Of a DNA stretch of 64,000 nt, positions 60,617 through 63,595 are shown one piece after another. The DNA comes from an uncultured Actinomycetes bacterium (GTDB lineage Bacteria > Actinomycetota > Thermoleophilia > Gaiellales > Gaiellaceae). Position 1 is the first letter of the stretch, and each line of letters starts with the position of its first letter. The DNA lies in assembly GCA_963774625.1 (NCBI GenBank), contig CAVZFQ010000014.1:55887-119886 (forward strand), read 5' to 3'. Below the pieces are notes generated by a model. That model was not told the DNA's origin and ran no database searches. It saw nothing but the letters and a program-made list of their open reading frames with translations. Both the position numbers and the translations under genes were made by a program.

Positions 60617-63595
60617 ATGTTGAGCGCGCGCTCGGCCCTTCGGGTGCTGGCGTTCACGCTCGCCCTGGGCGCGACGACGCTCGCCGTAGGCGCTTCCAGT
60701 GCGCTGGCAATTGGTCCCTCGTTCCGCGACGAGGTCATGGCCGACAACCCAGCCGGCTATTGGCGCCTCGGCGAGGCAAGCGGCATCACCGCTTTCGACG
60801 AAACCGTCAACGCGAACCCTGGTACGTATCTGCAGGCGGTCACGCTTGGCGTGCCCGGTGCGCTCGCGACGGAGCTGAATTCCGCAGCTCGGTTCGACGG
60901 CGGTAGCGGCAGGGTCAGCGTGACCGACCCGGCGAGTGGGGCCCTCGACGTCGGAACGGGTGACTTTACCGTCGAGGCCTGGGTCAAGACCACCGTCAAC
61001 GGCGAGCGGGCGATCGTCTCGAAGCGTGATGCCACGCGCTACTGGCAGGTGACCGTCACGGACGATGGAAGCCGCACCGGACACCTGCGCGCGAACGTGT
61101 TCGACGGGGTCGTCTCGCGCGAGGTGTACAGCCTCCACCGGGTCGACAACGGCGTCTGGCACCACATTGCCATCCTCTTCGACCGCGATGCCGGCATCAG
61201 GTTCTACGTCGACGGCGTGAACTCAGGGTTCACGATTGCCCCGGTGACGGGTGATCTTGGCAACGCCGCGCCGTTCATGGTGGCGAAGTCGAGCGGCTAC
61301 GCGAACCTGAATGGCGACGTCGACGAAGTCGCGCTGTTCAAGAGCTTGCTGCCCGTGGAGCGAATTCAGGCGCACTACTACGCAGGGATCGCAGATGCGA
61401 TTGCCCCGACGGTTTCTCTCTCTACCCCTGCCGACGGTTCCACGACGGGCACGACACCGTCGTTTTCGGGTCTCGGAGGCACGACGCTAGGAGACGTGAG
61501 CTCGGTGACCGTCAACGTCTACGCGGGCGCATTCGCGTCCGGCACGCCTGTGCAGGAGCTCGCCGCCGGCCTCGCCGGGGACGGGTCGTACGCGGTCGAC
61601 GCCTCACCGGCTCTGGCGGCGGGCACCTACACGGCTCAGACCGAGCAGGAGGATCGGCGCGGCAACGTCGGTCTGAGCGGCGCAAACACCTTTACGGTCA
61701 CCGACGGCCCACCGCCGCCGCCGCCGCCGCCGCCGCCGCCGCCCGATCCCGTTCTCGTCGGCGCGGGCGACATCGCCTCCTGCGGTGTCAGCGGGCAGGA
61801 CGAGGCCACGGCCTCGATCATCGAGGGCCTGCCGAACGCGACCGTCCTTGCCTTGGGCGACAACGCCTACCCGGACGGCAGCACGGCGAACTACGCGTGC
61901 TACGACGCCTCCTGGGGCTCCTTCAAGTCGCGCACGAAGCCCATTCCGGGCGGCCACGACTACACGACTCCTGGTGCCGCGGGCTACTACGGCTACTTCG
62001 GAGCGCTGGCCGGGAATCCGGCCGAAGGCTGGTACAGCTTTGACCAGGGCTCATGGCACATCGTGGCGATCAACACCCAGTGCGCCGAAATCACAGGCGG
62101 CACCTGCGACAACGACGCCCAGGAGGCCTGGCTGCGCGCGGATCTCGCTGCGCACCCAGCGGACTGCACGCTGGCGATGATGCACATCGTCCGGTTCAGC
62201 TCGGGCAACGTGCACGGCAACACCGACGACGTGCAACCGATCTGGGAAGTGCTCTACGAGCACGGCGTCGACGCTGTCGTGAACGGGGATGAGCACCTCT
62301 ACGAGCGCTTCCATCCCCAGACGCCTAGCGGGCAGCTCGACCTTGCCTACGGGATCCCGCAATTCACGGTCGGCACAGGCGGCTACGTGCTCTACGGGTT
62401 CGCCGCGATCCGACCGAACAGCGCCGCTCGGATCGCCGATTCGCACGGGGTTCTGAAGCTCACCCTCCACGAGGGCAGTTTCGACTGGCAGTTCCTGCCA
62501 ATCCCCGGCGATACCGGAACGGACGCAGGCACCGCGAGCTGCCATGGCGCGCCCGGCGGGCCGCCGCCACCGCCGCCACCTCCGCCACCGCCACCGCCAC
62601 CTCCGCCACCACCTCCGCCGCCACCGCCACCTCCGCCCCCGGACCCACCACCGCCGCCGCCACCTCCGCCACCACCGCCGCCGGACCCGCCACCTCCGCC
62701 ACCTCCGCCACCGCCACCGCCCCCGGACCCACCACCGCCGCCACCACCGCCACCTCCACCTCCACCTCCACCTCCACCTCCACCTCCACCTCCACCTCCA
62801 CCTCCACCGAGCGGCTACGGCGGCCAGGTCCTAGTCGATGCGCCGCGCGGCTACTGGCGGCTCGGCGAGGCGAGCGGGACGATTGCTTCGAACGAGATGG
62901 GCGGGACGGTCGGCACGTATCAGGGTGGTGTGGTGCTCGGCGCTCCGGGCGCGATCGTCAACGATCCGAACACGGCAGGAGGCTTCGACGGCAAAAACGG
63001 CAGGGTCGACATGGGCGACCCAGCCAACGACAGTCTCGACTTTGGCACCCAGGACTTCTCGGTTGAGGCCTGGGTCAAGGCAACTGCGCCCGGCGAGCGG
63101 GCGATCATCTCGAAGCGTCCTTATTCGAACACTCCGCGTCCGTTCTGGCAGGTCCTGGTGACCGACGACTCGGGCCAGACGGGCCGCATCCGAGTCAACT
63201 TTGGCGACGGGGCGACCACCCGTGAGGTGTACGGCCCCGCCGTTCGCGTCGACAACGGTGCCTGGCACCACGTCGTCGTTCTGTTCGACCGCGACATCGG
63301 CATCGTCGTCTACGTCGACGGGACGAACGTCCGGACGAATGTCGTAGGGATCGCCGGAAGCGTCTCGAACAACGGCGATCTGCTCGTCGGCAAATCGGCC
63401 GGCTACAACAACTTCAAGGGGAACCTCGACGAGGTGGCGGTCTACGCCGGCTTGCTCTCACCCGAGCGGATCGCCGCTCACCACCAAGCCGGGATCGGAC
63501 AGCTCGGGCTCATTCAAACCAGCGGGCTCCTAACACGACTAGTCGGCGGCAAGCTCAACATCTCCGCGTCCCCGTGGCGAGCGTTCTCGCCGTAA
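60617..63595 (+). CDS. Large secreted multidomain protein: LamG-like - Ig-like - P12 linker - metallophosphatase - 83-residue polyproline tract - LamG-like
   Basis: The 992-aa ORF has the signal MLSARSALRVLAFTLALGATTLAVGASSALA. Two paralogous LamG-type modules are present (YWRLGEASG...DF(T/S)VEAWVK...W(Q)V.VTDD...VDNG.WHH...FDRD.GI..YVDG...G.(L/V)DEVA). The metallophosphatase strings are GDIASCG, GDNAYPDG, GGHDY and NGDEHLYERF. Confidence 0.85.
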   Translation: MLSARSALRVLAFTLALGATTLAVGASSALAIGPSFRDEVMADNPAGYWRLGEASGITAFDETVNANPGTYLQAVTLGVPGALATELNSAARFDGGSGRVSVTDPASGALDVGTGDFTVEAWVKTTVNGERAIVSKRDATRYWQVTVTDDGSRTGHLRANVFDGVVSREVYSLHRVDNGVWHHIAILFDRDAGIRFYVDGVNSGFTIAPVTGDLGNAAPFMVAKSSGYANLNGDVDEVALFKSLLPVERIQAHYYAGIADAIAPTVSLSTPADGSTTGTTPSFSGLGGTTLGDVSSVTVNVYAGAFASGTPVQELAAGLAGDGSYAVDASPALAAGTYTAQTEQEDRRGNVGLSGANTFTVTDGPPPPPPPPPPPPDPVLVGAGDIASCGVSGQDEATASIIEGLPNATVLALGDNAYPDGSTANYACYDASWGSFKSRTKPIPGGHDYTTPGAAGYYGYFGALAGNPAEGWYSFDQGSWHIVAINTQCAEITGGTCDNDAQEAWLRADLAAHPADCTLAMMHIVRFSSGNVHGNTDDVQPIWEVLYEHGVDAVVNGDEHLYERFHPQTPSGQLDLAYGIPQFTVGTGGYVLYGFAAIRPNSAARIADSHGVLKLTLHEGSFDWQFLPIPGDTGTDAGTASCHGAPGGPPPPPPPPPPPPPPPPPPPPPPPPPPPDPPPPPPPPPPPPPDPPPPPPPPPPPPPDPPPPPPPPPPPPPPPPPPPPPPPPPPPSGYGGQVLVDAPRGYWRLGEASGTIASNEMGGTVGTYQGGVVLGAPGAIVNDPNTAGGFDGKNGRVDMGDPANDSLDFGTQDFSVEAWVKATAPGERAIISKRPYSNTPRPFWQVLVTDDSGQTGRIRVNFGDGATTREVYGPAVRVDNGAWHHVVVLFDRDIGIVVYVDGTNVRTNVVGIAGSVSNNGDLLVGKSAGYNNFKGNLDEVAVYAGLLSPERIAAHHQAGIGQLGLIQTSGLLTRLVGGKLNISASPWRAFSP
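61712..61741 (+). repeat. (CCG)10 perfect trinucleotide repeat encoding part of a P12 linker
   Basis: Counted codon by codon as CCA (CCG)x10 CCC, giving 12 Pro over 61709-61744. Confidence 0.9.
62561..62809 (+). repeat. Pro-codon repeat tract (80 Pro + 3 Asp), including (CCACCT)9
   Basis: Codon count gives P27 (62561-62641), D, P13, D, P13, D, P27 (62729-62809). The Asp codons are at 62642, 62684 and 62726, a 42-nt period. (CCACCT)x9 is perfect over 62750-62803. Confidence 0.9.

Follow-up and report, generated by a model that had tools for sequence, protein, structure and literature searches.

An 83-residue polyproline tract between the domains of a predicted secreted LamG-phosphoesterase-LamG protein from a Gaiellaceae glycan cluster

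Results and Discussion

A modular protein with two polyproline linkers

We analyzed a 64,000-nt stretch of DNA from an uncultured bacterium of the Gaiellaceae (contig CAVZFQ010000014.1, positions 55,887 to 119,886), referred to here as the window, and within it one gene on the plus strand, at 60617-63595, whose product contains an extremely long run of prolines. The open reading frame (ORF) was uninterrupted over 992 codons. We consider it probable that the product is a Sec-secreted modular enzyme of a Gaiellales type, that its gene is conserved within a surface-glycan cluster of Wzx/Wzy type, that it acts on that cluster's glycan, and that the proline run is a spacer of polyproline II (PPII) type that grew by replication slippage. 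The tract is an extreme and fast-evolving case of a known feature, the proline-rich inter-domain linker, and does not represent a new kind of system. The gene and its parts are as follows.

60617..63595, plus strand: ORF of 992 aa, predicted secreted modular LamG / Big_13 / purple acid phosphatase (PAP)-like phosphoesterase / LamG protein (ORF list; Pfam)
60617..60709, plus strand: predicted Sec signal peptide, aa 1-31, MLSARSALRVLAFTLALGATTLAVGASSALA followed by IG (read from sequence)
60731..61408, plus strand: N-terminal LamG (Laminin_G_3, concanavalin-A-like; Pfam PF13385)
61427..61699, plus strand: Big_13, bacterial Ig-like domain, aa 271-361 (Pfam PF19077)
61709..61744, plus strand: linker 1, P12 encoded by CCA (CCG)10 CCC, aa 365-376 (codon count; Tandem Repeats Finder)
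61745..62551, plus strand: PAP-like metallophosphoesterase domain (Pfam Metallophos, AlphaFold2, Foldseek)
62561..62809, plus strand: linker 2, the polyproline tract P27-D-P13-D-P13-D-P27, aa 649-731 (codon count)
62750..62803, plus strand: perfect (CCACCT)9 hexanucleotide array at the 3' end of the tract
62825..63499, plus strand: C-terminal LamG (Laminin_G_3), paralogue of the N-terminal LamG, best Pfam stretch aa 807-953
63506..63595, plus strand: 29-aa C-terminal tail and stop codon, overlapping the 3' end of asnB (ORF coordinates)

An initial annotation, made by reading the window alone, had proposed a secreted LamG-phosphatase-LamG protein with paralogous LamG modules, and the domain searches agreed. 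Pfam matched Laminin_G_3 (PF13385) in two stretches with 151 bits against a cutoff of 27.6, together with Metallophos and with Big_13 (PF19077), which scored 26.0 bits, slightly below its 27-bit cutoff, and which occurs as 1-3 repeats in homologs. The two LamG modules were 51% identical (BLASTP, E 2e-77). Because of the family and of the glycan-cluster context, they would be expected to bind carbohydrate. Secretion was supported by a basic n-region and an A-x-A site, read by eye from the sequence without a predictor, and by the segment aa 10-24, the most hydrophobic anywhere in the protein.

Anatomy and codons of the tract

Codon-by-codon translation of 62561-62809 gave 83 residues, 80 Pro and 3 Asp, in the order 27-1-13-1-13-1-27, exactly as first annotated. 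The P12 linker with its perfect (CCG)10 (10.7 copies at 100% by Tandem Repeats Finder) and the (CCACCT)9 array were likewise recovered. Across the rest of the 64-kb window, in any frame, the longest proline runs were 6 and 7 residues.

The tract is built from 32 CCA, 30 CCG, 16 CCT, 2 CCC and 3 GAC codons, with CC kept at codon positions 1-2 in all 80 Pro codons. The GC content at third codon positions (GC3) is 0.42 in the tract versus 0.84 in the remainder of the ORF, and CCC accounts for 2 of the 80 Pro codons in the tract versus 12 of 53 outside it. Identical adjacent codons are also depleted in the tract (0.16 versus 0.31 expected, z -3.1). The scarcity of CCC agrees with reports that consecutive prolines avoid CCC, and CCU less so, on account of slow decoding and +1 frameshifting (PMC8129111, PMC12856214). 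Mixed codons would, in addition, interrupt the trinucleotide repeat and share demand among tRNA-Pro species.

The three Asp residues stand 14 residues apart: they occupy positions 28, 42 and 56 of the tract, each a multiple of 14. The whole tract measures 6x14-1 residues, and the internal repeat offset that fits its DNA best is 84 nt (82% identity over 119 nt). For these reasons the 27-13-13-27 symmetry is likely a by-product of duplication in units of 14/28 codons. Two of the three Asp codons lie in identical 26-nt contexts, 84 nt apart, which hold the tract's only two CCC codons, and this match points to a segmental duplication. We rejected a functional palindrome; the DNA is not mirrored, with mixed codons in the 5' flank and (CCACCT)9 in the 3' flank. 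A model of six (P13+X) units is itself weakly backed by the DNA: codon-level autocorrelation at lag 14 (z 2.6) was no stronger than at other even lags, and lag 10 ranked top (z 3.2). The 42-nt DNA periodicity claimed in the initial annotation therefore did not hold up, with lag 14 unexceptional and the best offset at 84 nt; only the Asp spacing, at 14 aa, follows that period. ORFs running through the tract in another frame (62544-62834, plus strand) and on the opposite strand (62460-62807) were dismissed as by-products of the repeat.

Variation of the tract among relatives

Looking up the exact protein sequence gave no match on record. We searched about 5.8 billion proteins for homologs and obtained 887 matches below 1e-10 among 8,000 candidates scored. 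The domain set is common to hundreds of homologs, and the named LamG-type relatives came mostly from metagenome-assembled genomes (MAGs) of Gaiellaceae and Solirubrobacterales. At junction 1, between the Ig-like domain and the phosphatase, homologs carry P6-P12. Junction 2, between the phosphatase and the C-terminal LamG, is a linker of 32-36 residues, 13-18 of them Pro in runs of at most 6-11, in homologs with a direct connection, and holds 1, 2 or 3 Ig-type domains (132-333 residues) in others. The same junction in the window protein spans 102 residues, 82 of them Pro. Judged from these sequences, polyproline linkers are a trait of the family and the window copy is its extreme.

Close relatives at 77-96% identity differed from the window in tract length and codon order. 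Contig L122 (ENA; 82% aa identity in the N-terminal half) encodes P8-G-P24-G-P14, 48 aa, at junction 2, and L121 (77% identity) encodes P10, an inserted beta-helix domain and P19-G-P7 ahead of the LamG. The interrupting residue is thus D in the window tract and G in L122. Length and sequence vary among orthologs (83 vs 48 vs 10+27 aa, or 13-18 Pro) while the flanking domains are conserved, as befits a linker. Three further contigs cover parts of the gene. L128 (JGI metagenome, 93.8% nt identity over 4,983 nt) holds the target's upstream neighbours together with the 5' part of the gene itself; L123 (Gaiellaceae MAG contig, 75%) ends at its position 5322, its final residues ...CHG being exactly those that precede the tract; and L125 (JGI metagenome, 95.5% nt identity over 1,232 nt) has its first base within the tract and reads 21 Pro codons and then SGY... 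The JGI metagenome relative is Ga0190270 (~96%).

The comparison with L125 showed how quickly the tract DNA turns over. Of 63 tract positions 14 differed (22%), versus 42 of 1,169 in the flank (3.6%; Fisher p 2e-7), and all 14 tract differences were synonymous third-position changes. Where the window has (CCACCT)9, L125 has (CCGCCA)n(CCGCCT)3. Because every difference is synonymous and the hexamer arrays differ, the tract appears, by sequence comparison, to stay proline-coding while close lineages swap in different slippage products. The claim that this DNA is prone to slippage is supported by the range of ortholog lengths as well as by its divergence. The comparison with related strains that had been suggested at the outset found long tracts of differing length at junction 2 in independent assemblies.

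We excluded on/off phase variation. Repeats in the gene have units of 3 nt (CCG) and 6 nt (CCACCT), both multiples of three, so slippage alters length only.

Linker 1 is P12 in both the window and L128 (4465-4500), encoded by the perfect (CCG)10 array in the window and by a CCG/CCA/CCT/CCC mix in L128. Its DNA, too, seems to have been homogenised or diversified without change to the protein, because the same P12 is written in different codons.

Fold and active site of the phosphatase domain

Pfam placed aa 384-561 in the metallophosphoesterase superfamily (Metallophos, PF00149; 30.2 bits versus a gathering cutoff of 21.5). An AlphaFold2 model of the domain, built on an alignment of 42 homologs, had a mean predicted local distance difference test score (pLDDT) of 92.9 and a predicted template modelling score (pTM) of 0.92, so that the structure prediction suggested for the flanking domains gave a confident, PAP-like fold. 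Foldseek against the PDB returned 89 matches at E<=1e-3; all those listed were metallophosphoesterases, which share the alpha/beta sandwich of the superfamily. Each of ranks 1-31 was a purple acid phosphatase or a PAP phytase (E 2e-14 to 7.5e-12), with template modelling (TM) scores up to 0.77, the value for mammalian PAP. A PDB sequence search gave a weak PAP match (E 0.005), and it was the fold search that decided the identity of the domain. The tract lies between independently folding domains: pLDDT stays at 92 or more up to the last residues of the phosphatase model, and the LamG alignment begins 6 aa after the tract.

The metallophosphoesterase motifs can be read in the sequence as GDIAS, GDNAY, GGHDY, MMH and GDEH(LYER), and phmmer aligned GDEHLYER to GHVHAYER of wheat PAP phytase. 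Canonical PAPs have seven invariant metal ligands, D, D, Y, N, H, H and H, in the motifs GDxG, GDxxY, GNH[DE], VxxH and GHxH. Five of the seven are kept: the D of GDIAS, the D and Y of GDNAY, the H of MMH and the second H of GDEH. At the other two, Asn is replaced by Gly (GGHDY) and the first His of motif V by Asp (GDEH); the Asn position is G, N or D across the family alignment. With two of seven ligands replaced, a canonical purple acid phosphatase was rejected. Because only five of the canonical ligands are present, the domain is best filed, on sequence and model, as PAP-like. Phosphoesterase activity is plausible, not assured.

Compared with known PAPs (1UTE/2BQ8; 1KBP, 3ZK4, 6GIT), the domain has the same fold (TM 0.72-0.77), the tyrosine ligand of GDxxY, the conserved Asp, Asp, His and His ligands and YER after motif V. 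It differs in sequence (15-21% identity) and in that both replaced ligands, Asn to Gly and His to Asp, belong to the M(II) site. Unlike plant PAPs, it has no N-terminal fn3 domain and is flanked by LamG and Ig modules.

In the PKD-type relatives of this domain, P0022-P0034 and similar proteins from Acidobacteriota and Gemmatimonadota (about 1,120-1,480 aa), the domain-end motif occurs 2-4 times per protein, about 355 residues apart. These proteins appear, from sequence, to hold tandem PAP-like domains separated by PKD domains.

The gene lies within a glycan cluster

The first 43.8 kb of the window carry central-metabolism genes, including succinyl-CoA ligase, malate and isocitrate dehydrogenases, citrate synthase, succinate dehydrogenase, phosphoenolpyruvate carboxykinase, aspartate kinase and others. 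A glycan cluster follows from about 44 kb, with genes for a DegT aminotransferase, a nucleotidyltransferase-flavin reductase fusion, a luciferase-like oxygenase, an AMP-ligase, a formyltransferase, a polysaccharide deacetylase, an APH-type kinase, a methyltransferase, a Wzx-like flippase and Wzy_C, and then the beta-helix protein, the target gene and asnB. The genes closest to the target are these.

57940..59256, plus strand: Wzy_C O-antigen-polymerase/ligase-like membrane protein (Pfam PF04932, 81.8 bits)
59223..60386, minus strand: secreted right-handed beta-helix (Pel9A-like / DUF1565) protein, divergent from the target gene (Pfam Beta_helix, NosD, DUF1565)
63514..64000, minus strand: asnB-like asparagine synthase, 3' part, convergent with the target gene (92% identity to the Asn_synthase gene of L122)

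Cluster gene order was the same in L121, L122 and L123. The Wzx, Wzy, deacetylase, formyltransferase, kinase, methyltransferase and DegT genes are syntenic with L121, and the Wzy_C gene occupies the same position in syntenic L121 and L123. Past asnB the syntenic contigs continue with GT4, a Wzz-like gene, PAP2 and another beta-helix gene. The target gene had been placed at the edge of the glycan island; because the cluster goes on past asnB in relatives, it sits inside the island, and the supposed edge is the end of the window.

The divergent neighbour at 59223-60386 on the minus strand proved by Pfam to be a beta-helix protein, as first annotated. In L121 (10001-13500) a beta-helix domain is fused into the target ortholog, between the polyproline linkers P10 and P19-G-P7, and this domain is 49% identical to the window's neighbouring protein (E 3e-97). 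A similar fusion occurs in P0076. Because of the fused (Rosetta-stone) version in L121, the beta-helix neighbour and the target protein would be functionally linked, probably acting together on the cluster polysaccharide.

At the other end, the target ORF and asnB overlap by 82 nt at their 3' ends (63506-63595, plus strand; 63514-63585, minus strand). The window asnB is 92% identical to that of L122 except for its last ~16-23 residues, and the last ~29 residues of the target and ~23 of AsnB have no counterpart in L122. In L122 about 2.2 kb lie between the two genes, comprising three Ig-like repeats, a P24 linker and a gene for a 459-aa double-LamG protein. The window-type C-terminal tail is also present in L125. 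These sequences suggest that the overlap is probably a deletion scar, at which each gene acquired a new tail.

The 230-bp divergent intergenic region contained no sigma-70-like promoter, a result that is uninformative for this phylum. No gene for tRNA-Pro was found in the window, and none for elongation factor P (EF-P) or prolyl hydroxylase among those of its proteins that were scanned.

Long polyproline runs in other bacteria

In E. coli the longest natural proline run has 8 residues (PMC4218817), and in B. subtilis it has 4 (PMC12856214). To place the tract in a wider setting, we scanned one genome per GTDB species for (CCN)27 and found at least 120 loci. Runs were accepted as genuine polyproline by C content, an ORF of at least 150 codons and ordinary flanking protein sequence. 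About two thirds of the 120 loci listed were poly-C homopolymers. About 40 of the 120 were genuine runs of 27 or more, so that GTDB holds at least about 40. The longest among the matches listed were P96 (L045) and P88 (L069), both from Actinomycetes MAGs, followed by P66, P64, P62+P48, P56 and P51; P27-P32 hinges of alphaproteobacterial OmpA-like proteins (L014, L043, L044, L106, L111, L114) were also among them. None of the 120 loci came from the window's genome, and none encoded a homolog of the window protein (tblastn).

We compared ten run-bearing ORFs with Pfam. In 8 of the 10 the run is next to a known domain of a type often seen in secreted proteins, and three of these (L098, L035, L057) have a known domain on either side; the remaining two were uninformative, L041 with no match and L006 with only a weak P-domain match. 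The informative arrangements were these.

S53 propeptide, P43, P-domain (L098)
S8 peptidase, P37
S8 ... Calx-beta, P35, PKD
lipoprotein signal, P56, GSDH (L075)
Big_2, P32, FG-GAP (L057)
SpaA-like, P96
fn3, P62
LRR, P51

As in the window tract, the other genuine long runs are a mix of CCG, CCA and CCT with CCC almost absent. This scarcity is no effect of filtering, because the C-content filter would pass up to about 40% CCC. The runs in L045, L069, L098, L075 and L057 resemble the window tract in having at least 27 pure Pro, mixed codons, nearly no CCC and extracellular-domain neighbours. They differ in that the proteins are unrelated by tblastn, and only the window tract is split by three Asp, totalling 80 Pro. 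The papers searched held no description of ultra-long bacterial polyproline runs as a class. The tract is therefore rare, and extreme in its family, yet it is part of a recurring, little-described class and not unique. The initial annotation's "extraordinary for a bacterial protein" stands as to rarity, the tract being far longer than any run in E. coli or B. subtilis, and is otherwise overstated, given some 40 runs of 27 or more among the loci listed.

The scan also yielded observations apart from the tract. Pure runs of 42-96 Pro (L045:1009-2025, minus strand; L069; L036:2345-4939; L039; L090; L075; L081; L098; L073) come from unrelated bacteria, mostly MAGs of soil Actinomycetota and Proteobacteria. 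Poly-C/poly-G runs of 80 to more than 600 nt were present in many genome records (L001, L003, L004, L005, L007, L060, L085, L097, L117 and others), often at contig ends or beside runs of N, A or T; they dominate CCN-repeat scans and look like sequencing or scaffolding artefacts. At L077:1166-1813, a Metamycoplasmataceae MAG contig, (CCGCCT)n extends over hundreds of codons flanked by SA, LR and SP-type repeats, and is probably non-coding simple sequence or contamination and not a protein tract.

Proposed role of the tract

We propose that the tract grew to 83 residues by in-frame replication slippage of 3- and 6-nt units, with duplication of an 84-nt segment as a second growth process. The product would form an extended PPII stalk that separates the glycan-binding LamG from the catalytic head, within or beyond a polysaccharide layer. 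Relatives apparently use 1-3 Ig domains at junction 2 for the same purpose. The enzyme itself probably acts on the cluster's own polysaccharide, phosphorylated or acidic, and the beta-helix neighbour would work alongside it.

A PPII helix of polyproline extends about 0.31 nm per residue, and the contour length of 83 residues in this form is about 25-26 nm, an upper bound. Polyproline has a persistence length of roughly 4-10 nm and is kinked here and there by cis bonds. Treated as a worm-like chain with these values, the tract would have an effective reach of probably ~14-18 nm (root-mean-square end-to-end distance), a rough estimate of ours. Of the "rigid spacer of roughly 25 nm" first annotated, the inter-domain spacer thus stands, while 25 nm describes the contour length and not the reach. 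Three Ig domains would span about 12 nm, which the estimated reach of the tract exceeds.

Several points weigh against a spacer that acts on the cluster glycan. The PPII conformation and the reach are predictions, and the length of the tract may be tolerated and not selected. The length of 83 comes from an assembly, at a site where short-read assemblies evidently fail. We found no anchor motif in the protein, neither a sortase signal nor a transmembrane segment, and two of the seven metal ligands of the phosphatase are replaced.

The alternative that survives best is that the tract is a neutral by-product: a linker at a tolerant junction, in which slippage within a pure CCN repeat drifted upward, so that 83 residues carry no adaptive meaning. 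We regard this as quite possible, if not the reading we would choose. It draws on the spread of orthologs, from ~13 Pro through 48 and 83 residues to Ig domains, on a turnover of tract DNA about six times that of the flanks, and on the perfect (CCACCT)9 and (CCG)10 arrays, which have the look of recent slippage. Translating long polyproline is costly (PMC12856214), however, so growth to 80 Pro would not be free. The mixed-codon design (z -3.1, CCC almost absent, GC3 0.42 versus 0.84) also argues for selection on the tract, and since relatives put 1-3 Ig domains in its place, the distance itself would seem to matter.

A stronger version of the spacer hypothesis would make the tract a heritable ruler, interchangeable over evolution with an Ig stalk, in which slippage, by adding or removing Pro codons, adjusts the reach from a glycan-anchored LamG to the phosphatase head over a few to ~25 nm to match the thickness of the polysaccharide layer. 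We advance it tentatively and think it somewhat unlikely. If it were true, bacteria with EF-P of the unmodified actinobacterial type would routinely translate 27-96 consecutive prolines, beyond artificial constructs of 20. Experiments on proline stalling have used such artificial P20 constructs.

Could the tract be an assembly artefact? A proline tract would then exist, with its length and internal order wrong through collapse or expansion of the repeat. The short-read contigs L123 and L125 break at exactly this site, frameshifts occur near the tract in the long-read contigs of relatives, and an intact ORF is no proof of length, since collapse or expansion in 3- or 6-nt units leaves the reading frame unbroken. 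Against this, three independent assemblies have long tracts at junction 2 (48 aa, at least 21 aa, and 10+27 aa) and the entire 992-aa ORF is intact. The tract is also not monotonous; its mixed codons, three GAC and two CCC in matching 26-nt contexts should let it assemble more reliably. From these comparisons the long tract looks real and fast-evolving, and we judge an artefact unlikely.

The same site affects public records of the family. Short-read assemblies break here, L123 stopping before the tract and L125 (1-63) starting inside it, and frameshifts in the long-read contigs L121 and L122 leave the gene broken up into separately called proteins (P0033, P0040 and a 210-aa LamG fragment). 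Because public assemblies fail at the tract, database proteins of the target-gene family are often truncated. For genomics, the tract is thus a reproducible short-read assembly breakpoint and a source of truncated gene calls.

We also considered a translational device, in which the tract would act as an EF-P-dependent brake on copy number or would time the folding or secretion of the phosphatase relative to the C-terminal LamG. Whatever the role of the tract, its translation should need EF-P, as the initial annotation soundly supposed; in actinobacteria EF-P is of the unmodified type (PMC12856214). Ribosomes stall at consecutive prolines and at Pro-Asp and need EF-P there (PMC12856214), the choice among proline codons modulates pausing, CCA in particular being regulatory (PMC8129111), and the tract is rich in CCA and CCT despite the high GC3 of the gene. 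A few prolines suffice for pausing, however, and 80 would be unnecessary. The Ig domains at junction 2 in relatives point to a structural role, the long runs of other bacteria lie at domain boundaries of secreted proteins, and we identified no regulatory partner. We find such a device distinctly improbable.

Highly improbable is a scaffold, whether a PPII ligand for SH3/WW/profilin-like partners or an extensin-like substrate for hydroxylation or glycosylation: PPII helices are classical protein-binding ligands and the gene lies among glycan-modifying enzymes, but Ser-Pro(n) extensin motifs are absent, no 2-oxoglutarate (2OG)-Fe(II) prolyl hydroxylase was among the 33 window proteins scanned, and neither the length nor the interrupting residues (D here, G in L122) are conserved among orthologs. 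An extensin-like hydroxyproline-rich glycoprotein was rejected, the tract having no Ser and the 33 scanned proteins, which are part of the window's ORFs, including no 2OG-Fe(II) oxygenase.

As a PPII spacer, the tract can be set beside known proline-rich linkers. Like the Pro-Thr linkers of actinobacterial cellulases and the linkers of modular lytic polysaccharide monooxygenases (bioRxiv 10.1101/2023.06.01.543078), it lies between an enzyme and a carbohydrate-binding-type module of a secreted protein, and is extended, of low complexity and variable in length among homologs. Unlike those Pro/Thr/Ser linkers, it is nearly pure Pro (80/83), has no obvious O-glycosylation sites and is predicted to be a much stiffer PPII stalk. 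It is also several times longer than the linkers of its own family, with their 13-18 Pro. The Pro-Glu/Pro-Lys region of TonB and the polyproline hinge of the alphaproteobacterial OmpA family are likewise PPII-type spacers over a defined cell-envelope distance. The window tract differs from these in belonging to a secreted multi-domain enzyme, in being 2-3 times longer and in its Asp interruptions at 14-residue spacing.

For protein architecture, a single junction that holds either variable polyproline or 1-3 Ig domains is a natural experiment on spacer length in a cell-surface enzyme. For translation, two P27 runs and 80 Pro in 83 residues, together with at least about 40 other runs of P27-P96, offer natural substrates for the limits of EF-P, above all the unmodified actinobacterial type, and of tRNA-Pro supply, and let one ask why CCC and identical neighbouring codons are avoided.

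Other features of the window

The glycan cluster begins with an unusual set of genes. A single ORF at 45836-47620 on the plus strand encodes a nucleotidyltransferase (aa 139-360) with a C-terminal flavin reductase (aa 453-593), and adjoins the luciferase-like monooxygenase and the AMP-dependent ligase. Amid the tricarboxylic acid cycle genes, 23675-24658 on the minus strand encodes a tyrosine recombinase of the phage-integrase family, XerC/D-like, with an N-terminal SAM-like domain. The tRNA genes in the window are tRNA-Ala at 18831-18902 and tRNA-Thr at 1780-1854.

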